Assembly: GCA_973895155.1 (NCBI GenBank) | Contig: OZ316894.1 | Span: forward strand, 2,806,457 to 2,870,456 | DNA length: 64,000 nt | Source of the DNA: Marsupella aquatica | Lineage: Eukaryota > Plantae > Marchantiophyta | Direction: 5' to 3' | Shown: positions 2,723 to 52,103 of the stretch, one piece after another | Layout: the number at the start of each line of letters is the position of its first letter | Numbering within the stretch: position 1 is the first letter of the stretch | Notes under the pieces: model-generated | What the model was told of the DNA's origin: nothing | Databases searched by the model: none | The model's input: only the letters and a program-made list of their open reading frames with translations | Position numbers and translations under genes: made by a program

Positions 2723-3010
2723 GGGGATTTCACTTCCACAAAAATGGCACATCACGTGCAACGAAGGACAGGGTAGTTTTATTTGTTTGAAGGGAAGACT
2801 TAAGAATTTTTGTAGAAGAACAATAGGGTCTTTTAAATCCAATTTTGAGACTTATAAGAATATTAGGGTCTTTATAACCAAAATTTTGGAATATGCCAAG
2901 AATATTCCAACTTTATAGGGGTTGAAAATAATTTTTTTCTTACATTTTAGGGAGTCCAAGGCCTATAAATGTCGTAGGGGATGGGGAGGCATCCATATAA
3001 TGAGACCCCC
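2723..3010 (+). mobile_element. MITE-like non-autonomous element, copy 1 (about 290 bp)
   Basis: Starts GGGGATTTCACTTCCACAAAAATGGCACATCACGTG and ends TGAGACCCCC (short TIR GGGGG(T)TTCA / TGAGACCCCC). AT-rich core shared with 3490-3707 and 20468-20761. Confidence 0.7.
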
Positions 3011-3231
3011 AAGCTTGTACTCAATCTCACAATGGCTGCAACGGCATGCAAGTAGACTTTTGGCTTGAGTTTGTTCCATGTGGCCAGTGTGATGTTTGGG
3101 CCCGCTTGCACTGGCTATATCCCGGCTCAGATAACCCAATCCAAATGATATTTTTCTAGAGCGTCAGTGATTGGAAGAGATTCAAAGCTTGTCAAAGGCA
3201 CGACAACCTTTTGGATCCTGCAATGGCCGAC

Positions 3232-3492
3232 ACCTTTTGGGATGGATGAACATTGAGTGTCCATGTTGTAAAGCTCTTCATTGGATTGAAGAATGCAAGT
3301 CCAAAACGCAACCTATCCATGCTCCACAATGTGTTGTGCCGATGGGAAGGTGGATTTGCCTTCAATTGGTGCTTCTTTGGAGCCTTTGCAGAGTCTGGTG
3401 CAAAGTTTGTTGACCAAAAGTAATGTTGCAGCTACAACCTTTTGGAAGAATATTAGAGGGTACAATAATGTCTTGGCATTTATATCCTTGGG
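3232..3492 (+). pseudogene. Helitron Rep-helicase N-terminal fragment (frameshifted)
   Basis: Two overlapping ORFs read LGWMNIECPCCKALHWIEE / STMCCADGKVDLP...LQSL...FWKNIRGYNNVLAFISLGV. This matches the Helitron motif C-x2-C-x-A-L-H-W...CC-x2-G-K-V-x-L...F-x2-N-I-R-x-Y-N-x3-A-F-x-S-L-G. Cut off by MITE copy 2. Confidence 0.75.
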
Positions 3493-21953: not shown

Positions 21954-24900
21954 CGTTTCTCATTGTTGTTGTGATGCCTTCGCTGCCTTATTGCCTTTGG
22001 TGGTCGACATCTGCTTGTTGAACACGACGAATTGGTAAGTGGAACACTTTGAAGTCCGGCGGCGTAAGATCTCCAACAATGCGCATGGATGCTCTATTGT
22101 GACCCTACTCAACATAATGTACACCAGTCCCGGTGTGAATGCACTGTTTATTTCTAGCATGACCTTGCCTGCTAGTGTGCAACCTTGGCTCTTGTGACCT
22201 GTTATGGCGTATCCGAGCATGAGAGGGAAAGTGGATTTCTGATGGGTTTGCTGTCCCGAGATGAACTTGTTCTCGTGAACCGTGCGGTTGATCTTTACGA
22301 GGTAGTGGTTGGAAGACATTCTCACAAAAATTGACATTTTGCCTTCGGCTTCTGTAGTGATTTTCTCCACGATTCCTCTGTTCCCGTTCGCGGCCTGCTT
22401 GGAGAGGTCGATGTTGTGTGTGAGAATCACCTTGCATCCGATTGCAACGTTCGTCAGTGTGTGGAAGGAGGGATCTTGTATCCAAGGCCGGGTGGATTTG
22501 TCTAAAGGGGCATTGGTGAGTATTGGGACGGGCATAATCTCTTGGCGTGGAAAATATCTCCGTAATGCCTGTTTGTTGTAGTTGTCGACTGTTTCTCTAT
22601 GTGTGCATATCACGGTCGTCGAGGCGTTGATGAAATCATGGGCTTCTTGTTTGGACACATAACATCGTCCCAGGCACTCATCGATCGATTCTTGGGTAGG
22701 GAGGCCTGTGCGGATGTTGTTAAGGAACTCCATGAACTCCCGGTCTGTGCTCTGTCTGAGCACAATGCTGAGGTGAAATTTCCGCATGGTCTCAAAATAT
22801 GGCGACGACGAGAGGTGGCACGACTTGCATATGTCGTTGGTGTGGTGGGTGCAAACCGGAGGCAATTGGCACATGTCTCCGACCAGGATGACCGTCTTAT
22901 TTTGGAACGGGTCGGACGAGCGGTCCTCGTCTTGGAGTGTCTCGTGTAGTCTTGTGGAGACGTAACGCAACAGTTTGGGTGTCAGCATGCTCGCCTCGTC
23001 TATGACGAACACGTCATTGTTCCTCAAGATGTGGTATTGGGGACTGGTGATGTGCAGAGGCCTGAGCTCTCCGTGTATTGGAATGCTGAACAAGGAATGC
23101 ATTGTCACCGCGTCGGCGTTAAGGTTTATGGCAGCCGCGCCCGTGGTGGCACACATCTTCACCTTCCTCCCTTTATATGTCCAGTATTTGTTCATGAAAG
23201 AAACATGAACAAATACTCAGATGAAGAAAGTCTTGCCGGATCCCAGATTTCCATCGATCATGAACAGACCGCTCTTGACATCCTTGAGTGCCTCAAACAC
23301 TCTGATTTGGTCTGGAGTCAAGTTGACGGTCAGGAGAGTTTTGTCATTGAGCACCGCGCCGATCGGTTTCTCTATGGCGACGGTGGGGATCGCTTGGAAT
23401 GTGGCCGCGTCGTTGAAAATTTGGTGGGGAAGCTTTTCGTTCAGCTCCTGCAGCAGGTGGGATGTGTGGTGGGTGGAGTAGAGGTGCGATGCGCAATATT
23501 GAAGCACCAACTTGTGCACGTCGTCGACGCTAGTTATCAACTTGCGGTGTATGCACTCGTGCAAGTAGCTCCACGTCTCGCTTATGGGCCTTAGGAGAAT
23601 CTCGCCTTCTGCACGAATTCTCACGACCTTCAGGAGGTAGTTGTAGAAGAAGCCGTTCATCTTGTATACAGGATGATACTCCGAAAATCGCACGAGCCGA
23701 TCCGTCCGATACAAGAAATTGCCTTGCAAATCCCTACCGACGTAGTCTTTGGTGGTGCTTTTCTTATTGGTGAGGACCTCGTGGTTGGTGAAGTAGTCAT
23801 AGAAGGACATTGCAAACATGTCCTCGGGCCTGTGTGCGTAGAGTCTGGTGGGATGCAAACATATCCCCGAGGACTTACGATAGATGGCGGACCTCAGTTC
23901 TGGAGGCGACGAGTCCATGAACGCCACTGTCTCCGAGCGATGGATGATGCTGATTTTAAGGCACGTCAAGGCCGCCTCCATGGCGCACACGCTTTGAGAC
24001 AGGACGGCTCCGCTGACGAGCTTGAGTTAGACTTCAGACAGGTCCTCGAGTCCTAGAGTGCACGCATCGTTCGCATTGAGCTGGAGTGATCCCATGGGCT
24101 CACATTTGATCGCGTACTTGAGCAAATAGAATGACCAGGCCGCGTTTATGACGCGCTATAGGTTCATGTGCGCGTCCCACAACAGCAACACGAGCAGGTG
24201 GTATGGCACGACATTTTGGTGGTGGTCGCTTGGCCTGTGGTACCTCCATTTCCCCGTGGCGGGGTTGATGGCCGCATCTTTGTCGAGATGAGTTTCTTGG
24301 GGGAAACCCAACTTGCAGTACTTGAGGCCAGTTTGGGAGTGCCTTTGCAAGCACAAGCCCTCCTTGCAGTAGTGAAGTTGTTTCGTCACCACGTTGCGAT
24401 ACAAGGTCTTTTCTTTGAGTCCATTCGGCTCTTCGAATCTGCCGGATGTCGAGTCGAATCTGCCAGGGATGAATGCGGAAATTTTGTTCGTGACTCGATC
24501 GACATCGCAATCCTTGACCCATAGCACCGTGTGGGTGTGGAGTGATCCACGGCCCTGCAACTCATACTTGATGACGTAGTGGATCACATTTCCGATTATG
24601 GCGCGTTTTGACAAAATATAATCCTTGAAAAAACATTGGATTCGTTCGTGGAAGAGCACGGCGCATTCGATAGGACAATCTTTCCATGAGAAGGTCGGAT
24701 TCATCCTCTTCATGAGGTTCTTGAGGTCGGCGATCTCAGGCCAACGGGTGTCGCTGAGCTCATCGCAAGTGAGCGTGAGGAAGAAGTGGGGCAGTCCCCA
24801 TTTTCTCACCATACACTTGAGGTGTTGAGGTGTCTTCCGTGCCACCCCGCGCTCCCAGGAATGGCCTACGTGATTGTCTTTTTTATCAGCATTTTGTATA

Positions 24901-25171
24901 TTTCCTTCTCGCTAAAGTGGGGGCACCTCTCCTTGATCTGCATGTATTCCTTGTCGATTACTATCGTCCTGCTCATGCTTGCTACTTGGCTGGCCTGTCG
25001 CAATTGGTACATGATAAGCATGTACGGCTTGTACAAAGTGAATATGTTGAACAACTGTTGTGTCCTCCGTTTCATGTAGTCGATCAAGCTGAGTTGTCCT
25101 CGATGGAAACCCCTCGAGTGGACAAACAAGAACGGGAATATTGCATTTTCCAATGTCAATTGTGGATCGTT

Positions 25172-28100
25172 TGTGGTGCGTCCCATGGCTCCCTAAACCC
25201 AAGAAACCCCCCAGCTCAAGCCGATTCCCGCAGGTTTCGTGCTTGGCGAGGCCGTTTCCGCGGCTTAGCGGCATGGGACGCTGCTAACCTTCTACTACTA
25301 CTATTAATATTTTACACACATATACTGGACAGATCCTTCATCGGGTCATGAGATACGTAGCCGGCCTAATATAGGCCTTCCCCTGTCTTCCCCTGTCTTC
25401 CCCTCCGCCTTGTTAGGTATGTTTGGATTCCGCCGCCGGAATGATCCCCAATAGGCTTGGTTAAGCCGCTAAGACCTCTCTCAGCTCGACACATCCAACT
25501 CTCACTCCCCTGCTTACTTTCCTTCCTCCTGTGATGTGGGCACTCTTCACACAAGTTAATGCGACACACAAATAGCAAAATGACTCATTCTGACTGAGTC
25601 ATACCATGCTCTTGCCATACAAACAGTACATCTCATACACAAGTTCTGCGAACTAAGCCGTGAGGCCAACTCTATTCAGCTCTTAGGCATGAGGAAACAT
25701 GAATATACACAAGGGTCACTGTATGACTAACCGAGAGCTTCTCGTACTACTTGATCCCAGCCCGGCTGGTGCAAACTAAAAACTTGCTAAAGAAGAGGCC
25801 CTGAGCTCCCCGCTGCCCAGGTACTTATCCTGGTAGTGGATCCGCCATTCTTTGCATCGTAAGCCTAATCTACTTAACAGTAATCTACTTGCCCGAATCT
25901 ACCTATGTACAGCAAGGCAGGAGCACAAGTGTTGCTCCTACCAGTGGGACCGCAATCCCACTAAGCTAAGTGTCAGGGCCGCTCCTGGTTCTGATCCTAA
26001 TCCTAAACTTGGAGATCCGCGCCCGCCCTGCCCACTCACGCCTCCTCCCTCCACGTCCGCCCTCCCTAAAAGGAACGGCGCCCTTGCACCGTCACGACAC
26101 CGGTGGTGGATCCTTAATGGACGCCCCCAACGCTTCCTCCTCAGCCACTGCCGTAGGTTCATTCTCTGACAGATTACCTGCCCTTGACTGAGTCAACTCT
26201 CCATCGGCCTGACTGGGTCCACCTTCGGCTTCAGCCTCGACACCGGCCTCGGCAATACCCACGGCTTCGGCCTCAGCCACTCCCACGGCTTCGGCTTCAG
26301 CCACTCCCTCGGCTTCGGCCTCCCCTTCCCCTAGGGTAGTTGGATCCTTAGCCGTGACCCTGTCTGGGGTCGGTGCTGGGTCTACCTCCTTGATCACCAC
26401 GGCCTGTGAAGTCGTATTACTCCTTGACCCTGAAGGTTTCCGCTTCTTCTTCGTTGGTGGCTCGGCAGCTGGTCCCTTCCCCTTCCCACTTACTTCCGGC
26501 ACTGGTGCAGTTGGCGCGGCTTGTCCTTCGGCAATTACCACCCCTGGTAACTGGTTTGTCCCAACGGGAGATGGACCTACTGCAGCTAAGCATTTAAATA
26601 CTGCGGCTTGTTTTTTCAGCCGCTCTATTTGGTTGTCGGCCCGCCGCTGTAGGTTCTCCATCTTCCTCGTGATTTCCTCCAACTCCTCTTGGGTTTCATC
26701 CAGGTCCTTACGTGCCCCCTCCAGCTCGTTTTTGGCCTCCTCCTGCTCCTTGTGGGCTTCCTCCAATTCCTTCTTCAAGGTAGCCCTCTCCTCCTGGGTT
26801 GCTCTTAGCTCCTTGTCGAGCTCTGCAATGATGACAAACTCCATCTGGTTCATCTTGGCGTAAGTCTGTTCGAGCATCTCGTCCTTCTCCCTTAGGTCGG
26901 CCTTGAAGCTGGCCATCAGGGACGCAAGCTCCTGCTGCAGCGCCATAATCCCTTGATAGGATTTCCCTAACTCGACCTCCTTCTGCTCAAGGGCTCCGCA
27001 GATTTTCTCGAGCTCCCCTTTCAACGCCCATTCCTTTCTTTGGGTCTCCGCCATGGCCCGGCTGTTGGCTGTTATGTGGGCCTCCTCTGTATTCTTCAGC
27101 TCTTGCTTCCACTTCTCCCTCTCTTTGATCGTGTCGGCCAACTCTTCCTGCGTCTGAGTCAGTTTATCCTTGATATTCTGATTATCAGCCTGCGCGGTGT
27201 CCAACTGCCCCTGCATGATGTTCAGCTCATGTCGTTTAATCCGCAGTTCATCTTGGGCTTTCTTGGCCGCCCTTAGATCTTCAATCTCGTCTTCCATCCT
27301 CCTAAGCCGCCGAATGACCTCGTCCTTCTTGCTTCTCTCTAAAGCCACCGCTTCTTCTAATTGGTGCTTCTCCAACTGCTCCCTATGGAAAAAGGGTCCT
27401 ATCTCCAACTCCTCTCCAAAGATGCCGAGCGCAAGTTCCCCACACATCTCACCATACTCCATGGCTCTATTCTTAGCGTAGGTGGAGTAAGTAGAAGTGA
27501 TCGGCATCGCCCATCGTGGCCTCTGCTCCCAAGCCGTCCTGTGGATCTCTTCAATCGTGGCTAGAGGTTTGCTTCCTTTTTCGGCTAGCCGCCTGATATC
27601 CTCCGGCCAATCTCCCCCTGGTAAATCCTTTTCCTTAGCCAGGGCGGCCTCTTCCTCCTGCTTGATTCGCTCCTGAAATTCCTGCACCGTCTGTTTTATG
27701 CCGTCGAAGCTCGGGGGAGCAACATCTGGTGGGGGAGACTCAGGGCTACTCTGCTGGTTGGGGTCCCCTCGCACTACCCTTGGAAGTGTGGGGACAAACC
27801 GGCCACAGGTCCTTACTCCTGGAACGTGATGGTCCGACCCATAGCCGGAATTATCATGGCTGCAGTCCTCCACTGCCTCCTCTACCTCTTGGACGTCCGG
27901 CTTCTCCCTCTCCTCTTCGTCGGTAGGAGCTTCAGGCAATTCTGCCTCAGATTCGGAGCTTGAGGTTCCCACGTACATTCGAACACCTGGCTTGGATTCC
28001 GGCCTGATTCTCTCCTTGTCTCCAGCAAAGGGGTTTTCTCTTGTGAGCCGGTGTAGGCCTACCTCTGTAGTAGTGTCCTGCATTGTTGTCGTTGCCGTTG

Positions 28101-29830
28101 TTGTTGCCGATGCCGATTTCTTTTCTTTCTCCAGTAGTTTCAGCAGACTCTGCATGCCTGGTTGCTGCATCGGCAAGTCCTCCTTCCTGGGCCTAAACAC
28201 CTGCTCGATCGTAGGACTAACAGGTGGTTGAGGCTTCTCAGCCAACGGCCTCGGCGTTGGAGCTTCCTCCGGTGCCCTTACCTGCAGGGGAAGTACCGGG
28301 GCAAAAGTCTGACCTCTGGCATACCGGCACAACAGCGGCATGTGATAGCCAAGCCGCGACACGCTCCCCATGCCGATTACCTGCTGCTCCTCCTTTAAGA
28401 TCTTCTTCAATTGGTTGAGGAGGTACCCGTTGTAGTCCCGGCTTGGGTCTGGCCTTTCTGCCAGATAGACCTGTGCCTTGCCGATCTCTGCCCTCGGCAA
28501 GTTACAATGCATGGTCACCCGCAAGAAGTCGATCATCTCTCCTATGTGCGGGTTGGTGCAGGTATTCCGGAAGAAGCCATTCTTCGTTGATGGCCCGGGG
28601 AACGACCGGAACTCCTTGTCAGGCAGGGTCTTTCTGGTATCAACTTTGGTCTTATTGCCTATCGGCAAGCCAAACACTTCGGCAATTACCTTGGGAGTAA
28701 GATAGAAATCCTTCCCATATATCCTCGTGCAATTGGTCTCGGGTTCCCATGACCCCACGAATTCTAATAGGTCTGACTCCGGTACCTCCGGCTTCAGCCA
28801 TGGTAATCTTACAAAGGCCTCCAAGCCGGATCCGGCCATGAAGCCTTGGTACTTCTTGGTCTGCATGGCCGTAAAGCATGCATCCTCCTCCCGTGCAAAA
28901 TGTAGTTGCACCTCCACCGGTAGGGTTGCCGCCCAGCCCTTCCAGGTGTCATCCCTGGTTGGAATGGCCTTGACGAGATCGACCTCCTCCTCTTCGGCTT
29001 CTCCCTGCCTCCTGCTCTGCTGCTCGGCTGGCCTCTTTGGTGCCGCCGACCTCGTTCTTTTTGCCGGGGTGGCTTCATCGTTGACGGCCCCCTTCCTCTT
29101 CATCTCTGCTGCCGTGGAGGTTTCTCCTAGCACCGTTGCCTGGGTCCACCTTTCCGTGCTACCCTTTAATTCCCAGTGTATGTCGTTGCAGTTCTTGATG
29201 GCCTCTCGGATGCCGACGACGCTGTCTTTGCAAAACAGAAGATCGTCGAGTTGATTGGAAGTAGGCGTCCACAGGAACTCGTCCTTGATGAGTTCGCCTC
29301 CTAAGAAAGCCGTCTTCTGCAGCTCCCACAATCGAGCGAGCTCCTGCCGTTCTCGAGCTGCCCTTTCTGACTCCTCGTCCTCGTAAGTCTTGATGTACTC
29401 AGTTGCCCGTTCGAACAGGCATCCCCAGAAATGTGCCGCTTGATTGACGTTGCTCATACCCTCCTTAGGTCGATCGTCGGTATCTACTCTCTCCCCGAGT
29501 GCTTGCCTAAGCAGCTGACAGTAGTTGGCCTCCCGTAGTCGTCTGCCTAGTTCGTGCTCGCAAATGAGCCACCATCTCCTGCAAGCGCTCCTTACCCCTC
29601 TCCTCTGCCGGTCCTTCTTCCCGTTGATCCTTCCTAGCCGCCGACGCTTAACGCGCCCTAACCCTAATCGAGTTTTCACCCTCAGCCTTACCTCCGGCCT
29701 CTGCCCGGGTTCCATGGTTGCCCCTAATTGTTTATATTTTCCTTGTTTTGTCCCTATACTAAGGTGTTCCTAGGGTGCCTTCCTGCTTTACCCACTTAAC
29801 CGGTTGAGTGATTCCTGTCTAGGCATCACA
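25172..29830. mobile_element. 4,659-bp TG...CA insertion with 5-bp TSD (TCGTT), solo-LTR-like, carrying one large ORF
   Basis: TCGTT at 25167-25171 and 29831-29835. Ends TGTGGTGC...GCATCACA (8-bp imperfect inverted repeat). No second copy of either terminus and no gag/pol motifs seen inside. Confidence 0.88.
26092..29715 (-). CDS. 1,207-aa intact ORF: retrotransposon accessory-type protein (PMD/ATHILA-ORF1/Transposase_32-like segment plus long coiled coil); the true start may be the MSNV ATG near 29457
   Basis: Uninterrupted ORF. Segment SGLEAFVRLPW...DLLEFVGSW...TRIYGKDFYLTPKVIAEVFGLPIG resembles the L-x2-F...EF...G-x4-T-x3-I-x3-FGLP-x-G motif of plant-transposon accessory domains. Heptad-rich E/K/L region around 26620-27380; AEAEGV repeats at the C-terminus. 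Confidence 0.75.
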   Translation of the reverse strand: MEPGQRPEVRLRVKTRLGLGRVKRRRLGRINGKKDRQRRGVRSACRRWWLICEHELGRRLREANYCQLLRQALGERVDTDDRPKEGMSNVNQAAHFWGCLFERATEYIKTYEDEESERAARERQELARLWELQKTAFLGGELIKDEFLWTPTSNQLDDLLFCKDSVVGIREAIKNCNDIHWELKGSTERWTQATVLGETSTAAEMKRKGAVNDEATPAKRTRSAAPKRPAEQQSRRQGEAEEEEVDLVKAIPTRDDTWKGWAATLPVEVQLHFAREEDACFTAMQTKKYQGFMAGSGLEAFVRLPWLKPEVPESDLLEFVGSWEPETNCTRIYGKDFYLTPKVIAEVFGLPIGNKTKVDTRKTLPDKEFRSFPGPSTKNGFFRNTCTNPHIGEMIDFLRVTMHCNLPRAEIGKAQVYLAERPDPSRDYNGYLLNQLKKILKEEQQVIGMGSVSRLGYHMPLLCRYARGQTFAPVLPLQVRAPEEAPTPRPLAEKPQPPVSPTIEQVFRPRKEDLPMQQPGMQSLLKLLEKEKKSASATTTATTTMQDTTTEVGLHRLTRENPFAGDKERIRPESKPGVRMYVGTSSSESEAELPEAPTDEEEREKPDVQEVEEAVEDCSHDNSGYGSDHHVPGVRTCGRFVPTLPRVVRGDPNQQSSPESPPPDVAPPSFDGIKQTVQEFQERIKQEEEAALAKEKDLPGGDWPEDIRRLAEKGSKPLATIEEIHRTAWEQRPRWAMPITSTYSTYAKNRAMEYGEMCGELALGIFGEELEIGPFFHREQLEKHQLEEAVALERSKKDEVIRRLRRMEDEIEDLRAAKKAQDELRIKRHELNIMQGQLDTAQADNQNIKDKLTQTQEELADTIKEREKWKQELKNTEEAHITANSRAMAETQRKEWALKGELEKICGALEQKEVELGKSYQGIMALQQELASLMASFKADLREKDEMLEQTYAKMNQMEFVIIAELDKELRATQEERATLKKELEEAHKEQEEAKNELEGARKDLDETQEELEEITRKMENLQRRADNQIERLKKQAAVFKCLAAVGPSPVGTNQLPGVVIAEGQAAPTAPVPEVSGKGKGPAAEPPTKKKRKPSGSRSNTTSQAVVIKEVDPAPTPDRVTAKDPTTLGEGEAEAEGVAEAEAVGVAEAEAVGIAEAGVEAEAEGGPSQADGELTQSRAGNLSENEPTAVAEEEALGASIKDPPPVS

Positions 29831-30919
29831 TCGTTCGACAGTCCTTCCGCATCGGTGTTGACGCTCTCTTCGGAGCACATTCTCTTGCGGTCGTACATGG
29901 TGCCGGAACGAAAGACCTGGTACTTGCGCTTGTGTGAAGTCGGGATCCTGTAATGCACATCTTGGAGGATGTGCAGGTCGGGGTCGAATGGGTCAAAGTT
30001 CATGGATCTCGTGGTTATTCCCTTTGCCCTCTTGTCTTTGATGATGTTCTCTACTCCGTCGGAACTTAGGATGCACAGTCCCAGTGACGGGTCTGGTAGT
30101 TCGACCAATGAAACGTATCTTTTGAAAAGTTGGTTGGTCGTCAAATTGAGTTCCCGATTGAGTTCCATGACCTTGTATATTTGTCGCATGATCTCCTCTC
30201 GATTATTGCACTCTAGCGTGTCGAGATTCCAGGATATGAGTGGGTTGTCAAGGAGGCTTTCCTTTTTGTAGAAGCCAGAGTGGAAGCCATTGTACTTTTG
30301 TATGATGCCTAGTCGACAATCGATTAGCGAGAGCAATTGCATGTACAACGGCTTCGCGGCTAGGATGTCGATCGCATATTGCGGAGATATGAAGGAGTTT
30401 ATCTGGATACGGGCGGGGTTTCGCATGCAAGTCACGCACACGTTGATTGTTCCATCTTGGTTCTCAATATACTGGTTGACAAATGCGTTGTATATGCCGT
30501 ACGGCGTCATGTTCACCTTTGGTATGGTGGTGAATGTCTTGTCGATCCTCGGAGTGTTTCCGTATCGAACTAGTCCGCACATCCCGCACACCTTCATGTC
30601 TTGGATTGTCTTTTGGCAGACTTCTCTCCATTCTTGGAGATACAATGGGGCTGAGGCCCATCCTTGACATAACGGACTTAGTGACTCGGCACAGGTGTTT
30701 ATTGCACGCCTTCGTGCGGCATGTCTCTTCTCGGACATTGTACGCCGTGACATTTTTGGGGAGACCTATGCAAAGGATTATGAACTCGTTAGTTTTCTTA
30801 GCTAGGGTCCATCCAAAATTCGCTCAATGAAATTTCATAAACGAGTCTTGCTTATCACGATCTCGTAGTTACCAAGAAGAGTTGGTTGCTTGGCTCCAAC
30901 CCAAGTTAGCAGAGCGCCA

Positions 30920-31175: not shown

Positions 31176-32110
31176 GGTTCGGTCAGAGCAATACTTACAT
31201 TATTGCCCTTTTGCCCTCCATCTCCGCTCGGCTTGCCACCTTTGGTGGAACAATCCTTACTTCAATGATGACCCATGGCGCCACACGTGAATCACTATAA
31301 AGTTGTGCAGTTGTGTATGTAGGGTCTCTTGCCCCGTCGGGATACACACCAACTGGTTTGATAATAAGTGATGAGATTTTGGATATCACCCCTAAAGCTC
31401 ATTTACCAAGACTTGTACCAAGTCAAGGCATAGTTCTCCTAGGTATTTCGGTTAGAGCATTACTTAATGCCCTTCTGCCCTCCATCTCCGCTCAGCTTGC
31501 CACCTTTGGTGGAACAATCCTTACTTTGATGACCCATGGCGCCACACGTGAATCACTAGAAAGTTGTGCAGACTTTGTGTATGTAGTGTCTCTTGCCCCG
31601 TCGGGATACACACCAACTGGTTTTGATAATAAGTGATGATCATTTGGATATCACCCCTCAAGCTCATTTACGTTACACATCTCTAAGCGTGCCGCTCTAG
31701 GTACTTAGTGGTGACATGAGCACGAAGACCCTCAACTAGGTTTTCCCAAGTTAACGGCAAGGAGGAGTCCTCTTGCGACTTCTTCCAAGACTTGTACGGT
31801 CAAGTCAAGGCATAGTTCTCCCAGTTTTGGGTATCACCCCTAAAGCTCATTTACGTTACACATTTCTATTAAGCGTGCCGCTCTAGGTACTTAGTGGTGA
31901 CATGAGCACGAAGACCCTCAACTAGGTTTTCCCAAGTTAACGGCAAGGAGTCCTCTTGCAACTTCTTCCAAGACTTGTACCAAGTCAAGGCATAGTTCTC
32001 CCAGTTTTGGGTATCACCCCTAAAGCTCATTTACGTTACACATCTCTAAGCGTGCCGCTCTAGGGTTCGGTTAGAGCAATACTTACATTAAGGTATAGTT
32101 ACCAATCAAG
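31174..32110. repeat. Mosaic of direct repeats: about 230-270-bp unit x2 (31174-31410 / 31447-31670) and about 180-bp unit x2.3 (31645-32064)
   Basis: Shared blocks include GCCACCTTTGGTGGAACAATCCTTACTT, CCGTCGGGATACACACCAACTGGTTT, TATCACCCCTAAAGCTCATTTAC and AAGTCAAGGCATAGTTCTCC. Confidence 0.85.
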
Positions 32111-32469
32111 GTATAGTTCTCCTAGGTATGCGAAACCGTATCGCATCATTCACACGATAGGCCCACAAAGATAATACGGTTTAGGTGGTGTTGGAGACAC
32201 CCACGTAAACCCACAAGTAAATGGGCGTGGGCAAAAGCTACCATGTTAGCCGAATCAAGAAATTTGTCCAAGACGATGATCCCAACCGGGATCAAGTCTT
32301 GCGTTTGGACACTATGCTGGTGGAGGACGCTAGTGATCGAATCCGTCAGTCAAACATAGCTTTAGGATGCTGGTGAAGGACCTTAGTTTGTGAATTGGTA
32401 CAGGCAACTATAAAACCTTGTAATCTAATCTAATGAATTATATAGGTTTAATACTCAGTCAATATAAAG

Positions 32470-32523: not shown

Positions 32524-34039
32524 TCATGTTCTTTACAAAGTGAGGATCTTTGTTGCAATCAAAATTGTAATGACAAAAAGCAATTCAAACATGGCTATGA
32601 TTTGGAGTTGGTCCGGATTCGAAGCACACTAAACCGTCTTAAAGGACCGCAACAGAGAAAATGCCAAATTAAATAGCCAAAAGTTATATTAGAAAATAGC
32701 AAGGAGTTTAGGGTTCAATAATCATGTTAGGGACCACACAAAAAGCAGGAAGAACTTGAAGTCAGGAGACAGCAAACCTGTATGTAGAAGCGTTGTTTAA
32801 CTTATTCGGAGCTTCTCTTCTCTAGGTAACTTGAAAACTCACGTCCAACTTCCCGAACATCATTAAGTAAGTTGGCCGACACACCATGCCCTTTCTGCAA
32901 AAAGACTTGTGTGAGTACCAAACAAACTTTCCATTAGATAAAGTGTCCACCTCTAGTAAGTTACACTAACTAGGCCTCTTACCCAAGACTCCTTGAAAGT
33001 AGAGATACAAAGAAAGAAAAAGCTTGCACGGAAACAATTCTAAGTATGCTTTAATTTGGGTTCATCTTTGCCCATCTAGTTCTTTGTCCACCCTCCTCCA
33101 TACTGTTTTTTTGTTTATCTTCATTTTTAAAGTTATGTGATTATTAAAGACTCATTATCAGTTTTGTCTTTATTGGGAGTTGCCAACTCTACCCCATAGG
33201 CCTTAAGTAGCTTTGCAAATTATTAGTAAGATAGCTTAGCCTATAAAATACATCTCACATAAAATTGTGACTCATTTAAGTTTATTTCAGGTGTCAATCT
33301 AATTTCATGTTGTTTACGAAGTGAGGATCTTTGTTGCAATTCAAAATTGTAGTGACAAAAAACAATTCAGACATGGCTATGATTTGGAATTGGTCCGGAT
33401 TCGAAGCAAACTAAACCGTCTTAAAAGGACCGCAACAAAGTAAATGCCAAATTAAAAAACCAAAAATTATATTAGAAAATAGCAAGGAGTTTAGGGTTCA
33501 ATAATCATGTTAGGGACCACACAAAAAGCAGGAAGAACTTGAAGTCAGGAGACAGCAAACCTGTATGTAGAAGCGTTGTTTAACTTATCTGGAGCTTCAC
33601 TTCTCTAGGTAACTTGAAAACTCATGTCCAACTTCCCGAACACCATTAAGTAAGTCGGCTTACACAGCATGCCCTTTCTGCAAGAAGACTTGTGTGAGTA
33701 CCAAACAAACTTTCCATTAGATAAAGTGTCCACCTGTAGTAAGTTACACTAACTAGGCCTCTTACCCAAGGTTCCTTGAAAGTAGAGATATGTAGAAAGA
33801 AAGAGCTTGCATGGAAACAATTCTAAGTATGCTTTAATTTGGGTTCATCTTTGCCCATATAGTTCTTTGTTCACCCTCCCCCATACTGTTTTTTTTGTTT
33901 ATCTTCATTTTTTAAGTTGTGTGATTATTAACGACTCATTATCAGTTTTGTCTTTATTGGGAGTTGCTAACTCTAGACCATAGGCCTTAAGTAGCTTTGA
34001 AAATTATTAGTAAGATAGCCTAGCCTATAAAATACATCT
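32524..34039. repeat. Tandem duplication of about 735 bp (32524-33255 / 33304-34039), period about 780 bp
   Basis: Both copies run from TTCATGTT(C/G)TTTAC(A/G)AAGTGAGGATCTTTG to AGCCTATAAAATACATCT, with scattered substitutions. Confidence 0.92.
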
Positions 34040-34928
34040 GACTATAAATTTCAGTCTAATTATAGGCTCTAAGTATGGGTAGGGTTTCTCTACATGCAGA
34101 TTGCTACTGTCTATTATGATTCTGGCCTCCTTGAAATAAGGATTTGTCCTATGCTATGATTTGGCAGCAGCCCAAGTTGTATTAACGAACTGTTATCGTG
34201 TGTTACTCCTTTTTAGTTCGCCGGGTGTTTAGCCATTGAGTTCTTGTACTAGGACTGAATGCGTTTACTATTTTGAAGTTGAGTTGTGATCATCTGCTCT
34301 CCTTTCAAGATCAGTCTCGATTACCAAAACCCTTCGGCTTGCAGGAACTCGACTGTGATGCATTACAATGACTTTTTTGGGCCAGTTTAATCGAGACGAT
34401 TGTTCATTTGCTCTCCTTTCAAGATCGGCTTGTGGGAGGTCGCTAAGTTCAAGGCTATAGAATCTCAATACATGGAGGCATTTCAACTGTAGCTATTTGA
34501 TGTATAGTATAAGTTAGTTTCCTTGCTCGTGAAGGAAAAAATGGTGAATGCCCTAATCATAGGCGCTTTGGTGTAAGTCTTGGCCAAACTACTTGACACT
34601 GAACATGAATTTTGAGGTGCCAGTTTAGGGACAGCATTGCAATTGCCAAGTGGACGTCGTCAGCAAGTTTGGCTATAAATGACTGCGAAAGTGTATGTTG
34701 CTGACTTCAATTCTTGAAAGCACATGATATTACAGTCCCCAAGGGCGAAGAGTCTATTATTGAGCACTGACTCCATGCTGAGGACAAGATCGTTCCTAAC
34801 TCGACTCCACATATTTACAGTTCTCGCCCGAGAATGACAATTAATTACTCAGTGTGTTTGACAAGGAGGTGCTCATAAGAAAGTTGACCTTGTTCGATCG
34901 ATATGCTTTTGCCTTTTTCTTCTGCTCA

Positions 34929-43641: not shown

Positions 43642-45666
43642 TTATCTGCTCAGATGCCCAGGCGCCCGGCCTTCGAGTTTTGCCATTTCGGTGGCGTTTT
43701 CTGCCCAGACTCGTCGAAAGCTCCGGCTAGAATCTTGAGAGCCTCGAGAGTTTGGGATGTAGCTGCTGCTAGTGATGGATGCAGCCAAAGGGATCTCCTG
43801 AGACTCGCTGCCGCTAGAGTCATCGTCCGTTAGAGACAGCAGCTCCAGCTCGGAGGGTTTCGAGGACCCCCACGATCGCTTTGAGCTCAAGGAGTTTGCT
43901 AGAGGTTTGAGGAGTGGAGTCTGTTTTGCGGCCGCCATTTGTTGCTCATTGTTGCCGCTTCCATCGCGGCTGAGGTTCTTGTTGGTGGAGCCGGGAGAAA
44001 GTTGCCGGCGCGGGCTGCCAAGTCTGTTGCCAGACCCTTGGGATGTTAACTTGCGAGAGTCTGGAGAATCGACCACGAGAATCTTTGGAGAATTGCAATT
44101 CTTCGGAGAATTCGCCCCGAAAGGAGCATCATCCAGGCTGTGTTCCATCGAATTAAGGAGCTGCATTTCAGCCCACAGCAGAGGGGAGGTCTTGGAGTTA
44201 GCAGCCTCCCGTGTGATACAGAGTGCTTTGGACAGCATATCTGCCAGCTCGTTCATGGTGGGAAGCCTATTTCCCTTGGGCCGGAGGCACATCTTTACAG
44301 CCTCGCAAATGGCCTCCAGCTCGACCTTCTTGTAATCCTTCAAGCTCGGATCCACCATTAACCGCATCTTTTCGGCGTCACTGAGGTACTCCTTCGCCCA
44401 GTCGATCAGAGGACCCTGCGTGTCTGTAAAGGGACGCCTCCCAGTGATGACCTCTAGCAAAAACACACCAAAGCTCCGAATATTACTGTCTAAGTTAGGC
44501 GTATGCCTGTGAGCTTCCCATTCATTGTACCCAACCACTGTGGCAATCTTTGCGAAGGATTTCCTCCTGCCCAGAGACTTCATACTGAAATCCCCCGAGT
44601 CTTGAGTGACGGCAAAGTCTGCCAGTTTGGCAGCGTAATCTTCTGTTAAAAACACATGCCGGGCATCGAATTTGAAGTGGCTTGTCGGGGGTATGAGCTT
44701 GTGGTGCAAGTACTCCAGCCCACATGCCGCCCCCATGATTATCCTCATCCTCGTGGCCCAATCCAAATGATCCTCAGCTGCACCTCTCGCGTGGAGATGC
44801 TCATAGAGAGTGCCATTGGAAGCGTATTCGAAGACTAACATTCTCTCAAAGGGAGTGTCGGTTGCGCAGTAGGCTATCAAATTGACCATGTTGTCATGAT
44901 TCATCCGAGCCAAATCCTCTACCTTGTGCCTAAACCCAATCTCTCTTTTCGCAGTCCACCTCTCCGGCGGAATTCTCATCCTCGCAACAGCAATTGGCAC
45001 CCCGTCTGAGACTCTCGTGCCTTTGAAGACAAAACAATCCGTCGACGTCCCAATGACGTTGGTGAACTCCTCGCAGGCTGCGTCCAATTCCTCGAAGGTA
45101 ATCGTCGGGACGCCTGCGAACGTGAACTTCTGGATCTGCTCATTATCATGGAAGCTCAGCCCCTTCTTCCAGGTTGTGCCGGCCTCCCGCCTGCGCTTCC
45201 TCACCAGGAGCCTTACCTTTGCTGCAATGACCGTCGCCACAAGTAACAGAAAGACGGCCGGTCCTATGAGAAAAAGCCAGAAGAGAGACAGCCGCTTAGA
45301 AGATGTCGAATTGACCCTGGTCGCGATGGCTGGTAGTGCCGTTGGCGCTGGCGTTGGTGCTGGCGTTGGTGCTCGTGCTGGTGCTTTCGTTGGTGATACT
45401 TTCGGTGGTGTTCCCGCTGCTGCTGAAGTGTTGACCTTGCCAGTAGCGAGTATCCGGCGAAGGAAGTTGCCTTCGCCTCGCCCTTCCTCACCTCTTGTCG
45501 CTCCATGAATCAAAGACTCATCCTGTAAGGGCAGCAGGCGAGCCTCACAACCTGGAAGAACCGAAGAGCCTGGTGGAGAAGGGGAGAACAGCAGCAGAAC
45601 GCCAGCTAGAAGAAGAAGCAGAAGGCCCTCGTTGCATGGTTCTCTCCTCAACCCCCTTTGACACAT
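43642..45666 (-). CDS. Intronless single-pass receptor-like pseudokinase, MDIS/LRR-VI-2-like but lacking LRRs (674 aa)
   Basis: Signal peptide, short Pro/Ala/Thr ectodomain, TM helix (LFWLFLIGPAVFLLLVATVIAA), then GVPTITFEELDAACEEFTNVIG...FRHKVEDLARMNHDNMVNL...PFERMLVFEYASNGTLYEHLH, typical of MDIS-like kinases. The VAIK lysine and HRD are replaced (IAVAR, SHFKFD). SPLLWAEMQLL motif followed by a Ser-rich tail. Confidence 0.88.
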   Translation of the reverse strand: MCQRGLRREPCNEGLLLLLLAGVLLLFSPSPPGSSVLPGCEARLLPLQDESLIHGATRGEEGRGEGNFLRRILATGKVNTSAAAGTPPKVSPTKAPARAPTPAPTPAPTALPAIATRVNSTSSKRLSLFWLFLIGPAVFLLLVATVIAAKVRLLVRKRRREAGTTWKKGLSFHDNEQIQKFTFAGVPTITFEELDAACEEFTNVIGTSTDCFVFKGTRVSDGVPIAVARMRIPPERWTAKREIGFRHKVEDLARMNHDNMVNLIAYCATDTPFERMLVFEYASNGTLYEHLHARGAAEDHLDWATRMRIIMGAACGLEYLHHKLIPPTSHFKFDARHVFLTEDYAAKLADFAVTQDSGDFSMKSLGRRKSFAKIATVVGYNEWEAHRHTPNLDSNIRSFGVFLLEVITGRRPFTDTQGPLIDWAKEYLSDAEKMRLMVDPSLKDYKKVELEAICEAVKMCLRPKGNRLPTMNELADMLSKALCITREAANSKTSPLLWAEMQLLNSMEHSLDDAPFGANSPKNCNSPKILVVDSPDSRKLTSQGSGNRLGSPRRQLSPGSTNKNLSRDGSGNNEQQMAAAKQTPLLKPLANSLSSKRSWGSSKPSELELLSLTDDDSSGSESQEIPLAASITSSSYIPNSRGSQDSSRSFRRVWAENATEMAKLEGRAPGHLSR

Positions 45667-46860
45667 TCCTTCGCCTTTGCTAGGGCGTCACCTTGATCCA
45701 CAAAGCTTGTGTTCACTCAATTGAGCCAATGGACCTAACAATCAATGTCCTGCAACTGACACTTTGCATAGACTGCTGTACGGTCGGCGCTTCGATCACT
45801 AATAATCTATTGCCTTCCGATTACGCGACAAACAATAGAGACCTACCCCAAACTCCTCGAATCTGATTGCAATTCCGGGTCTATCCCAACCTCAGGCTGT
45901 TGATAAGAAGTTCGACGTGAGGGCTCTCAATAAAATGGTTGTCCGTCCCAATGCAAGGCCCTCTGTCCGCAGCAAGATTCCAAAAAATTTCCAGTTGCTT
46001 ATTCCACCACGCTTACCGGGAGTCCAGACTGCCGAAGTGACGTTCAAGGGGAACTGTCGGAGCCATCATTGCAGAAAATTTAGTATGTCAAATTCAAAGA
46101 TTACTGAATGCTCGAAAAAGCCCGTGCACAGGCAGATTTCTGTGTTGAGCTTTGACAAAACCAAATGAAGAAAGAAAACGAGACATAGTGTTTGGACAGG
46201 TAAGATTTATCTGCGGGAGCTTCAGATAAGGCTTCGACCTAGTTGCAAACGACTGAACAACATAGAGTGGTAAATGAAGCAAATGCGTCAACCTACTTTA
46301 GTGCGAACGAATTGAAGAATCAAACGAGCGCTTCCAAAGACCGAGACAGAAAGGGGCACAACGAGAGGTAGTGCCCCTGCACCTACACAACAACGAGAGC
46401 TGACGCTACTGCACATATGCCTCCTGCACCCCGACTAAATTTAACTTCCGGCGAATTTCTGTAGCTTCCCACTGAGGTGAGGCGCTCGCGCTCGGTTTCT
46501 GCTCGTGCTCCACTTCGACTCCCACCTCCGGATGGTCTAGGTGCATAAGAAAGCACTGCCCGTCCGGGATACAAACGCCTGAGCGCTGGAGCTACAGCTC
46601 GCTCGACCCAAATCATCACCAGGGTAGACAATCCCATACATCGATACTCACCGGCAAATACGACGATCCGAGCTCCTCTCCTTGTTACTCAAATCGGGCA
46701 TCCGAACTCATGCGGAAGCTCCCAGCTTAATCCTCAGTCGCCTTTTTCAATTAAGTACCTGCAAACCGTCACCCGAAATCTATTGTTCTAATTGTAATCC
46801 TCGTCCTTCCAGCAAAGAAAACTCTCCGTCGTGCGCTCTCTTCTCCTCTCCTCTCCCCTC

Positions 46861-47159
46861 TGTTGACAGTCACTTTGCTTCATGATTCATAGCAAAGTAC
46901 CATGCGCTTCTAAGTGAGAAGTATGATTGTATCAGGCTGTTCTGCTGTGTCCACTCCCCCGGATATTATGGCTTGTTATCCGCTTGCTTGCTTTGATGAT
47001 TAGTAGGGACGTGCCCTGTACGTATCACATTTCACCGTAGATCTATGTTCTACCTCCTAATGGATTAAAATCCATCTGTATCTCTGGCATGTATTTATGT
47101 GGGGGCCCCGCCTCCCCTTTCCCACTCATCACAGGAGATCAATAAACTTGTTCTCTTCA
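46861..47159 (+). repeat. 5' LTR of the copia element
   Basis: TGTTGACAG...CTCTTCA, duplicated at 51805-52103. Confidence 0.97.
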
Positions 47160-47172
47160 TGGTATCAGAGCC
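47160..47172 (+). other. Primer-binding site (tRNA-iMet)
   Basis: TGGTATCAGAGCC immediately after the 5' LTR. Confidence 0.93.
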
Positions 47173-47381
47173 TTCCCAGGATAATGCCTGAGGGCTCAGT
47201 CTTTTCTTCCGTATTTTTCTGTAGTTCCGAGTTGGTAAGAATCACTCGCGTAGCTTTGGAGTCATAGCTGTATAGTCTTACGTTGCAGGTGATAGATCCC
47301 TGTCGTGTTCTCCGTAGTACTCAGGAATTTATTTTCATAGGTGATAGGTCCCTGTGCATTTCTTAATAGTACTCAGGAACG

Positions 47382-50300
47382 ATGAACCAGGATATGAATT
47401 TCTCAATGTCCAAGGACGAGAAACTTAATGGGAACAACTACCCATTATGGTCCTACAAGATGAAGCAGAGTTTCATCAAGGAGAAGATTTGGTACGTAGT
47501 TCGGGAGAATCTTCTTGGAGTGATCTTTGATGCTAACGATCCTGTCAATCCCACTCCCGCTGAGCGACGTACAGCTCAGAACAAGGCATTATATATGCTG
47601 ACTAAAGCAGTAGAGGACAAGATGCTTGCTAGATATGTGCGGATTGATGATCCAGCTTTTCTCTGGGCAGAACTCCGCCGTGCTTGTGCAGGCAACACCA
47701 CTTCTCGCCGTGCTGTACTCAAACGGAAGCTTTTCAGTCTCAGATTCCCTGAGTCTGCTACCATGACTACTAACTTCAGCACTGTCAATGAGTTACTTAA
47801 CGATCTTGCTGCTGTGGATGTCGCTTTTACTGATGAAGAATTGCAGGGAGTAATCATTGATGCTCTACCCCGTAGTTGGGAGACCTTCGGAGCTGTTCTT
47901 GCAGGACGAGAGAATATGCCTTCCTTCTCCCAACTGGAGAATATTGTTCGTGAAGAAGAGAGTCGTCGTGGTGCTCGCAATTATGCTGGTGAAGAGGCGC
48001 TATTTGTCCGTCATGTTTTCCCCCCACCTGCACCTTATGGCCGGTTCAACAACGCAGGGGGACGTGCCCGCGGTCGTGGAGGTCCTAATTTTGGAGGAAG
48101 AGGGGGCCGTGGACGTTTCCCGGCGCCATTGAACAACAACAACCGTGGAGACAACAACAACCGTGGGGCCTGCTTCACGTGCAGCGACCCCAGCCATGTT
48201 GCCCGCAACTGCCCTTTCCGTGGTCTCGAAACTGAGTTGCAACGCCTCACCGCTCGTATGACTCAGATGAACATTGGGGCTGGACGTGCTGCAAACCTCG
48301 TGGAGACAAATTTTGGTCCAAACCCGAATCCCGACGTTGAAGAATATTTTGATGCTGCACCTGAGAATGTCGATACGGTTACAGCTGACCAGATTCTGGA
48401 GGCCAATTTTACTGAGGTGATAGCACAGCCTGATCACCCGGAATGGATCTTCGACTCTGGAGCTAACACCCACCTCACTAGTGACAAATCTGGACTCACA
48501 AATTTTGTAGCTCTTGCCCCTGGATCCTCGGTGGCAACCGCTGGTGGGGCTGCCTTGGATATCAAGGGTAAGGGCACCCTCATTCTTGATCAGAATAAAC
48601 TTTTGAACGTTTTGTATGTGCCGCGTGCCCGTCGTAGCCTTATCTCTGTTGGAAATCTGGCTGATTTAGGACAAACTATATGTTTCAATTCCTCACAGTG
48701 TGTGGTGTTAGATCAAGAAAATCAAGTTAGCATGCATGGGGCACGTGATCCAGTGACTCGCCTATACACTCTAGTTCCCAAGCCTCCACCTAAGCTTGAG
48801 CAACTCTCCTTACCGATAGCTTCATGTCACATCGCCACTACTTCTTCATCTAATGCTGAACTTTGGCACAAACGCCTTGGACATATCCATTTTCAGAAAT
48901 TAGCACACATGAGTTCAACTCACCTAGTTGTCGGCATTCCACATATTTTGCCAGTCAACACAATATGCAGCACTTGCATGGTAGCCAAGCAAACACGGGA
49001 AAGAATTCCAAAGCACTCTCTGACACAAACAACTAGGCCTTTTGAGCTAGTTCACTCTGACGTTTGGGGCCCAGCCCGTGTACCATCCTTAGCAGGCTCT
49101 CGCTATGTCCTCACATTTACCGACGACTACACACGGTATACCTGGACATTCTTCCTTCGTTTCAAATCCGAAGTCTTTTCTACTTTCAAAGACTTTTGTG
49201 CTTCTGTCCAGAGTCAATTCGGATATCAGGTTGGATGCCTGCGAACCGATCGAGGTGGAGAATACATTTCTCATGATTTTCAACAATTCTGCTCCACTAG
49301 AGGCATTTTTCGTCAACTCACTGCCGCCTACACTCCACACCAGAACGGTGTCTCTGAGCGTAAAAATCGAACTCTCATTGAAGCGGCTCGCAGCCTTTGC
49401 TTTGGTGCTCATTTTCCGGCACCTCTTTGGGAAGAGATGGTGCGGACTGCTACTTATATTCTGAACCGATGTTCCACTCGAGCTCTCTACAAAACAACTC
49501 CTTTTCAGCATCTTCATGGAATCAAACCTGACGTTAGTCATTTCCGAGTCATTGGCTGCTCAGCATATATTCACATCCCTGCTCCATTACGCTCTAAGCT
49601 TGAACCAAAATCTCTCAAAGCTATTTTTGTTGGTTACGATGAAAACACCAAGGGATATCGTTGTTACTCGCCCAGTAGACGTAAAATTATTATCAGTCGC
49701 AATGTTCGTTTTGATGAGTCTGAACTTGGCATCTTTGCCGTTGCTGGTCCTGAACCCACTTCCATCGATTTTGGGGATTTATCGCCTTTTGACTCAATTG
49801 CTCCACCTATACCAGACATTGTTCCTGCTCCCGATGATAATACCGACCCAGACTCCACTCTAGGAGATCACAAGGATACTGCTCCGCCTGACACGGTTAT
49901 AGCAGATCCACCCATAGCTCCAGTTGAATATCGTCGCTCTGGCAGACTCCGCTCTCATAATTCTAGGCTTCTTGGGTTTTATGCTGAACCTCCTCCTTTA
50001 GAATTATCGGCTTGTGCTATCGAAACTTCTGATCCAACTATCACTGACAACATTTCTCTTCGTGAAGCACTCACTCACCCTGACTGGTCTGGAGCTATTG
50101 ACGAAGAGATGGACTCCATCCATAAAACCAACACTTGGACCCTTATGGAATTACCCCCTGGCAAGCGCGCCATTCCATCTATGTGGGTCTTCAAACGGAA
50201 ACCTATCTCTGCCACTCATGGTCGACTGAAGGCTCGTCTTGTTGCCAAGGGCAATTATCAGCAACATGGCATCGACTACTTTGAGACTTTTGCGCCAGTG

Positions 50301-51650: not shown

Positions 51651-51804
51651 AAGCCAACGCCACATTTCTGTTTAGTTCTTTTGATCTGTCTGTAGCCTGT
51701 TTGATCTGCTCCGGTGGACCTATCAAACTCCGTGTACATCCAAGTGATTTACGTAATCTTGTCACATCCTGTTTACTTTCTCATACACTTAGAGCGAGGG
51801 AGGG

Positions 51805-52103
51805 TGTTGACAGTCACTTTGCTTCATGATTCATAGCAAAGTACCATGCGCTTCTAAGTGAGAAGTATGATTGTATCAGGCTGTTCTGCTGTGTCCACTC
51901 CCCCGGATATTATGGCTTGTTATCCGCTTGCTTGCTTTGATGATTAGTAGGGACGTGCCCTGTACGTATCACATTTCACCGTAGATCTATGTTCTACCTC
52001 CTAATGGATTAAAATCCATCTGTATCTCTGGCATGTATTTATGTGGGGGCCCCGCCTCCCCTTTCCCACTCATCACAGGAGATCAATAAACTTGTTCTCT
52101 TCA
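51805..52103 (+). repeat. 3' LTR of the copia element
   Basis: Copy of 46861-47159, preceded by a polypurine tract at 51791-51804. Confidence 0.97.

Follow-up and report, generated by a model that had tools for sequence, protein, structure and literature searches.

A probable protein-coding solo LTR within a Helitron

Positions 25172..29830 of the 64-kb stretch of DNA analyzed here (contig OZ316894.1; hereafter the window) hold a 4,659-bp insertion that is very probably a solo long terminal repeat (LTR), left behind by a retrotransposon whose giant LTRs carry a gene. Most of the insertion is a single intact open reading frame (ORF). Taken as a whole, the account that we favor, and which we consider probable, is that a Ty3/gypsy element left this solo LTR and that the accessory gene within it encodes a predicted nuclear DNA-binding protein with a possible anti-silencing role.

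The unit has sharp ends. Its termini, TGTGGTGC and GCATCACA, provide TG...CA ends and an inverted repeat that is complementary at 7 of 8 positions, and the element is directly adjoined by a TCGTT target-site duplication, with the left copy at 25167..25171 and the right copy at 29831..29835. If the ORF defines the sense strand, the element lies on the minus strand and its 5' end is 29830. Removing the element and one copy of TCGTT in silico restored the frame of a Helitron Rep protein (...GLSND joined to PQLTLE...). This host Rep-PIF1 helicase ORF (21960..30765, minus strand) is split by the insertion and has additional stops, and Pfam matches to Helitron_like_N and PIF1 were found in the frames flanking the element. 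An initial annotation, made from the sequence alone, had described the same ends, duplication and imperfect terminal inverted repeat, and had reported that excision joins LSND to PQLTLE; all of this was reproduced when the coordinates were recomputed. The annotation had also seen no paired LTRs, gag, protease, reverse transcriptase (RT) or integrase inside the element, and our searches concur: there was no Pfam match to any of these four proteins in the element's ORF, and in a self-BLASTN of the 4,659 bp the direct repeats inside the element were at most 46 nt long, with none that paired one end with the other. Terminal pairs of short LTRs, which had been named beforehand as the finding that would count against a solo LTR, were sought both by this self-BLASTN and by local alignment of one end with the other, and none were seen (alignment score of 19 versus a mean of 20.8 and a maximum of 27 in 100 shuffles).

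Evidence that the unit moves as a whole comes from contigs of public sequencing runs (coded X1-X8) that were aligned to the locus. Six runs, from four organisms and four studies, contain at least half of the element's sampled words, and one of them is possibly the source sample; no RNA run was among those listed. Summed contig cover in X1, which is not a copy number, was 1,565-3,378 in the bins beside the element and 146,201-897,347 inside it; likewise not as copy number, the step at both end-holding bins was approximately 100-fold in X1 and X2 and more than 10-fold in X3, and it was less clear in X6. There was no step between the ORF and the element termini. Contigs exited the element at 25172 (four in X3, agreement 0.55; three in X6, agreement 0.5) into mixed flanks; a single contig each in X6 (record 32) and X8 exited at 29830. 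Empty-site joints that skip 4,664 nt, that is, the 4,659-bp element plus one 5-bp duplication, were present in X1, X2 and X6. Because cover rises at both ends, contigs enter unrelated flanks and an empty site exists, the element is a discrete, high-copy mobile unit and not a one-off deletion product. The cover step and the loose ends at 25172 and 29830 mark identical boundaries at other insertion sites, in contigs from more than one run and organism; together with the TG...CA ends, the short inverted repeat, a target duplication in the range of 4-6 bp and the lack of paired repeats, gag and pol, this is the picture expected of a solo LTR. An assembly artefact is ruled out by the empty site and by the other flanks in contigs. 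Separately, the host Helitron is itself found in many X1 and X2 contigs, and it may be its other copies, not an empty allele of this locus, that gave rise to the empty-site joints.

The ORF and the proposed layout of the LTR

The ORF runs from 29715 to 26092 on the minus strand (26092..29715; 1,207 codons from M1) and makes up 78% of the element; its length, span and fraction, given earlier for one intact ORF, were recomputed and hold. It is not a chance occurrence, because the stop-free frame of 1,225 codons compares with a maximum of 372 in 1,000 dinucleotide-matched simulations; the five remaining frames have 24-59 stops each. Where translation begins is uncertain. M1 (29715) has a good start context, yet it lies 21 nt after a TATA box, and the alignment with the homologue P0007 starts at residue 4 of that protein and residue 91 of the ORF, near M87 (29457; 1,121 codons). 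An out-of-frame ATG at 29575 precedes M87.

We think it likely that the ORF is in the sense orientation and located in U3. The simplest layout on the minus strand would then place the gene, together with its promoter, in a U3 of approximately 4.5 kb, with a short R and a U5 that forms a hairpin after it, the roles being assigned from motifs. A TATA-like box, AAATATAAA (29731..29739, minus strand), stands near the start of U3, its TATAAA being 95 nt inside the 29830 end, and is likely the promoter of the accessory gene. At the other side of the ORF, the 920-nt non-coding tail (25172..26091, minus strand) would consist of the end of U3, R and U5. In it we located a second TATA-like box (CCTATATTAG context; 25367..25373, minus strand) approximately 200 nt from the LTR 3' end, which is likely the element's own promoter, and, approximately 60 nt beyond this box and 130-140 nt from the 25172 end, an AT-rich zone resembling a poly(A) signal (25300..25316, minus strand). 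The tail closes with a long U5-like hairpin (25175..25290, minus strand) with a computed stability of -63.3 kcal/mol (z = -4.98; none of 200 shuffles reached this stability). The initial annotation had placed a TATA-like box about 95 nt from one end and a poly(A)-like zone about 130 nt from the other, and both were relocated there; the box at 25367-25373 is absent from it and is offered here as an amendment. A layout with a giant R was disfavored by reasoning, as the strong-stop DNA would have to be 4.5 kb long and transcription would have to pass the 5' poly(A) site.

Small differences among copies suggest that selection keeps the reading frame. Among the indels listed inside the element, nine of ten fall outside the ORF, in the 920-nt tail, and the tenth, within the ORF, is 3 nt long and in frame; for these listed rows, the bias away from the ORF has a P of approximately 0.01 on five clusters. 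Other counts point the opposite way. The substitutions listed are 16 synonymous and 30 non-synonymous; because this is close to the 34% synonymous share that neutral transitions would give, selection at the codon level is not supported, and one X7 contig has a 1-nt deletion within the ORF.

Whether this particular copy is active is a separate matter. There is an even chance that the gene works in full elements only and that the present solo copy is silent and decaying, its intactness reflecting youth. The copy differs from nearly all aligned contigs at 11 listed sites, 8 of which are non-synonymous, and a CpG observed/expected ratio of 0.69 in the element suggests past methylation; against silence stand the intact frame, the two intact TATA-like boxes and the intact tail. 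A silent copy is compatible with the architecture that we favor.

The protein and its predicted fold

Relatives of the protein were found in a HMMER search with ORF residues 87-520 against 1.84 billion representative proteins (E <= 0.001). This matched 23 representatives, the best at 42% identity, of which 22 are plausible relatives and one, P0014, is a repeat protein. Three of the ten clusters looked up include NCBI gene models of the leafy liverwort Calypogeia fissa, and a profile search added two further proteins of this species, P0036 and P0037. Because these relatives belong to a liverwort, the host of the element is likely a bryophyte. Other collections were less informative. A word-seeded protein search with the whole ORF retained 0 of 7,993 candidates and one for longer forms with alignment A2 retained 0 of 7,990; in viral contigs a first search gave no pattern match and a second gave 21, none of which was confirmed, as was also the case for 101 pattern matches in metagenome contigs. 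Six metagenome loci (110 pattern matches) were rejected as spurious, the matches being 19-45 residues long and unsupported by other family members.

The protein begins with an N-terminal region, a motif resembling a nuclear localization signal (NLS) and a core. An acidic linker leads from these to a charged segment free of proline, and the tail is acidic and contains KKKRK. The conserved N-terminal region (approximately residues 91-246; 28978..29445, minus strand) is shared with P0005, P0007 and P0009 at 35-43% identity, and the NLS-like motif, a bipartite pattern, lies at residues 206-222. It is followed by a conserved globular core (residues 244-472; 28300..28986, minus strand) with a predicted fold of the PMD/Athila-ORF1/Transposase_32/VANC type. 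The proline-free, highly charged segment (residues 801-1045; 26581..27315, minus strand) is, judging from its composition, likely a long helix or coiled coil, and a simple test for heptad periodicity found no peak in it. We found no membrane segment in the ORF protein, and an env-like membrane protein was ruled out for lack of a hydrophobic segment. A 24-nt tandem repeat at 26226-26322 encodes the acidic tail, rich in EAE(A/G)V, and contig variants were seen near 26079-26190.

The core likely has the fold shared by PMD, Athila ORF1 and VANC proteins, on modest scores. VANC21 (9lnk) ranked first among 48,161 chains for both of two AlphaFold models of the core (predicted local distance difference test, pLDDT, 66.4 and 66.8), with alignments of Z 4.6 and an rmsd (root-mean-square deviation) of 5.1 over 174 residues and of Z 4.0 and an rmsd of 5.6, also over 174 residues. 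Consistent with this, an Atlas model of P0036 aligned with PMD, ATHILA and Transposase_32 clusters at a TM score of 0.64-0.69 over approximately 195 residues, which is below the bar for naming a family, and a feature search toward proteins of these three types gave a score of 0.87, at the level of a lead. The following weigh against this fold assignment: (i) the scores are low, as a Z below 8 may reflect a common arrangement and the models reach a pLDDT of just 66-67; (ii) Foldseek searches with the core models gave nothing at E <= 0.001 in PDB (twice) or among viral models; and (iii) Pfam PMD, DUF1985, ATHILA and Transposase_32 had no match in the ORF or in any of the 31 aligned members. A search of PDB by sequence profile also gave 0 matches.

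Because the predicted fold links the core to VANC and PMD-C proteins, which oppose silencing, it is possible, if somewhat short of an even chance, that the accessory protein works in the nucleus as a DNA-binding factor, protecting or activating the LTR that encodes it. VANC and MAIN/PMD proteins are described as sharing a fold by structure (PMC13547354; 10.1101/2024.09.27.615353), VANC as removing methylation from its own transposon family (PMC5735166) and PMD-C proteins as opposing Polycomb silencing (10.1101/2024.09.27.615353). There is also a report that Polycomb repressive complex 2 represses some bryophyte transposons (10.1101/2022.10.24.513474).

If the protein does bind DNA, one candidate site is a 31-nt motif in the non-coding tail (25659..25689, plus strand), with an inverted 32-nt partner in the leader upstream of M87 (29504..29535, minus strand). 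The pair, which was spotted post hoc, scores 35, compared with at most 27 among 200 shuffles, and no third copy was found in the window. A long tandem array of motifs, resembling the targets of VANC, was not found in the non-coding part of the element, which weighs against our account; the repeated motifs seen are the two-copy 31-nt motif and a 10-mer at 2.8 copies, and enrichment of short words in the non-coding parts had no significance after allowing for the number of words.

Nearly as likely as an anti-silencing role is one in which the protein of the same solo LTR supports the particle or integration complex, as scaffold or import factor, or acts as a tether that directs integration. The long charged helical segment and NLS-like motifs would suit such a protein, and Athila-domain and VANC proteins are predicted to oligomerize via coiled coils (PMC13547354). 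Athila ORF1, TRP28 and the PMD-A proteins of retrotransposons are described without an assigned function (PMC7264820; PMC11963269). On the other hand, chromatin at DNA motifs is where the best-studied proteins of this fold act, and a U3 promoter that is likely its own would permit the protein to be made before gag-pol, as would suit a regulator.

The probable Ty3/gypsy link and the proposed origin of the unit

The relative P0037 bears most directly on the kind of element involved. It contains gypsy RT, RNase H (RH) and integrase, followed by 471 residues that are 96% identical to P0036, which is itself 24% identical to the ORF core. No second RNase H match lies between RH and integrase, and the domain order is that of gypsy. 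As read from this gene model, a distant relative of the ORF lies downstream of, and in the same orientation as, gypsy pol, a position that fits a 3' LTR and an internal sense ORF alike. The part that P0037 has fused to gypsy RT-RH-integrase is C-terminal in the accessory family, and the fusion could reflect a gene model joined in error, genuine splicing or a deletion. The recurring boundaries, the lack of end repeats and this gypsy-linked relative support the proposal of the initial annotation that a retrotransposon family places its accessory gene inside a giant LTR.

A plausible scenario for the origin of the unit is as follows. A full element would have inserted into the Helitron, making the 5-bp duplication that is seen with the element's ends, and recombination between its two long LTRs would then have left a single copy. 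Read on the minus strand, this LTR would open with a very long U3 (TATA, ORF and tail), after which would come the element's own TATA, a short R that includes the poly(A) zone, and U5 as a hairpin; with R and U5 short, reverse transcription could proceed without a 4-kb first jump, and U3 would be copied as usual from the 3' LTR to both ends. The gene would thus be duplicated, being present in both repeats and in solo copies because of its U3 location. It would be transcribed from the U3 promoter to the poly(A) site of the LTR, and a solo LTR would, as for MMTV (mouse mammary tumor virus) sag, comprise promoter, ORF and terminator. By analogy to PMD, Athila ORF1 and VANC, the protein might recognize motifs of the LTR that encodes it and counteract DNA methylation or methylation of lysine 27 of histone H3 (H3K27).

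A possible trace of the parent is present next to the element. The X3 loose-end line at 25172 (four contigs, mixed) has a 13/18 match to what we take to be the tRNA-Asn primer motif, 4 nt from the element end on the minus strand, which is that of the ORF; among 200,000 random four-flank consensuses, 18 matched as well as this. The literature searched for the motif gave only unrelated primers. Athila and Tat elements have tRNA-Asn as a minor primer type (PMC6317226).

Several points tell against this scenario. A parent with two 4.66-kb LTRs around gag-pol is something that we infer, and P0037, a distant relative, has a pol-plus-ORF gene model that fits an internal sense ORF equally. The primer-site hint is weak, being post hoc and dependent on an assumed form of the motif and an assumed tie rule: 13/18 was reached in 290 of 5,000 simulations with one carrier among the four flanks, and the X6 loose-end line has just 8/18. 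Finally, there is no polypurine tract in the single X8 flank at 29830.

The ORF might also be antisense to gag-pol, as in Retand and Grande, and driven by a backward promoter at the 3' end of the same solo LTR. Within the OTA clade, extra ORFs in antisense orientation are frequent (PMC6317226), and the box at 25367 reads TAATATA on the plus strand too. We consider this unlikely given that the P0037 relative is on the pol strand, that the primer-site hint is at the 25172 end on the minus strand and that the lone X8 flank at 29830 lacks a primer-like start.

More doubtful still is a stand-alone, non-autonomous 4.66-kb unit with no two-LTR parent, mobilized in trans by an integrase-like (Ginger-like) transposase. 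Such a unit would be discrete and high-copy, with TG...CA ends and a 5-bp duplication, as observed. Ginger-type elements have much longer terminal inverted repeats than the 7/8 nt seen here, and the U5-like hairpin and two TATA boxes suit an LTR, as do the link of a relative to gypsy pol and the primer-site hint.

We give very little credence to the element having arisen by deletion from an ordinary Athila/Tat-like element with short LTRs and an internal extra ORF. This would agree with the internal position described for plant extra ORFs (PMC7264820; PMC11963269), and P0037 is compatible with an internal sense ORF, but no direct repeat pairs the ends, no cover step separates the ORF from the termini and the two boundaries are found again in other runs.

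Non-autonomous retrotransposons of the TRIM, LARD and TR-GAG types retain two LTRs, a primer site and a polypurine tract. They resemble the present unit in having no pol and integrase-type ends, and were rejected as paired LTRs were not found at its ends.

Comparison with known systems

The sag protein is approximately 320 residues long. There is precedent in MMTV-type sag for a gene situated mostly in U3, with an internal U3 promoter, that survives in solo LTRs; of 527 sag contigs, 490 are reported to be without other retroviral genes (PMC4667437). To the general rule invoked by the initial annotation, that solo LTRs are normally non-coding, sag solo LTRs are an exception (PMC4667437). The parallel does not extend further: MMTV is an animal retrovirus, its protein is unrelated and its gene lies mostly in U3, whereas here, in what is likely a bryophyte element, LTR and ORF are far longer and the entire ORF is inside the repeat.

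Closer in kind are the extra ORFs of non-chromovirus OTA Ty3/gypsy elements, namely Athila ORF1 (PF03078), Ogre PMD (PF10536) and Retand TRP28 (PMC6317226; PMC7264820; PMC11963269). OTA elements share the 5-bp duplication and have LTRs of up to approximately 5 kb (PMC6317226), features that are not exclusive to the clade, and their extra ORFs have a related predicted fold, a charged helical tail and NLS-like motifs. The present element thus has the 5-bp duplication, long LTR and extra ORF of Athila/Tat types, none of them exclusive. It differs in that OTA extra ORFs are described as internal and are lost upon LTR-LTR recombination, whereas here the ORF fills the repeat and has no Pfam sequence match. 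That plant Tat/Athila accessory ORFs usually lie between the LTRs had been stated in the initial annotation, in agreement with what is described in PMC7264820, PMC11963269 and PMC6317226.

VANC21 of the VANDAL Mutator-like transposons (9lnk; PMC5735166; PMC13547354), the top structural match to the core, is likewise a transposon-encoded accessory protein with a coiled-coil region. It is just 6-9% identical at a low Z, is found in eudicot DNA transposons and targets tandem motif arrays; the ends of our element, its 5-bp duplication and its gypsy-linked relative all disagree with a VANDAL origin. The MAIN/MAIL PMD-C proteins (10.1101/2024.09.27.615353) belong to the fold group predicted for the core, associate with chromatin at DNA motifs and counteract Polycomb, but are Arabidopsis host genes without a sequence match to the element's ORF. 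In position, then, the element is like sag, and in fold it is probably like VANC/PMD; by the tests run it is a member of neither family. No description of a plant LTR containing a whole long ORF was found in the literature searched, with subscription literature mostly outside the search.

The usual view is that solo LTRs are debris without coding capacity and that plant extra ORFs have an internal position, and for plants a repeat that is 78% coding would contradict both parts of it. It would show that U3 can grow beyond 4 kb, and gene-bearing repeats of this kind would be mis-annotated as a host gene family. If our account is correct, the gene is duplicated with each retrotransposition and survives LTR-LTR recombination, the host's main route for deleting retrotransposons, and solo copies would spread possibly working genes across the genome. 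The predicted fold ties the accessory protein to VANC and MAIN proteins, which oppose silencing. In its fullest form, which we regard as possible but unlikely, the idea is that a bryophyte Ty3/gypsy element moved an anti-silencing gene into U3, making its solo LTRs self-contained genes that help all LTRs of the family in trans against DNA or H3K27 methylation, so that the removal route would itself build up a stock of helpers. The 4.66-kb cassette joins the gene to its likely target and could be assayed in a liverwort model, with a bearing on the function of Athila/Ogre/Tat extra ORFs.

Other features of the window

An intact-looking Ty1/copia element at 46861-52103, with 299-nt repeats that are 100% identical, a 1,426-codon gag-pol and a Met-type primer site, is a very recent insertion. 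It is adjoined by a 681-codon open frame with a protein kinase domain (43642-45687, minus strand). Tandem blocks of approximately 783 nt (93-95% alike) and approximately 183 nt are present at 32559-34050 and 31357-32125, respectively.

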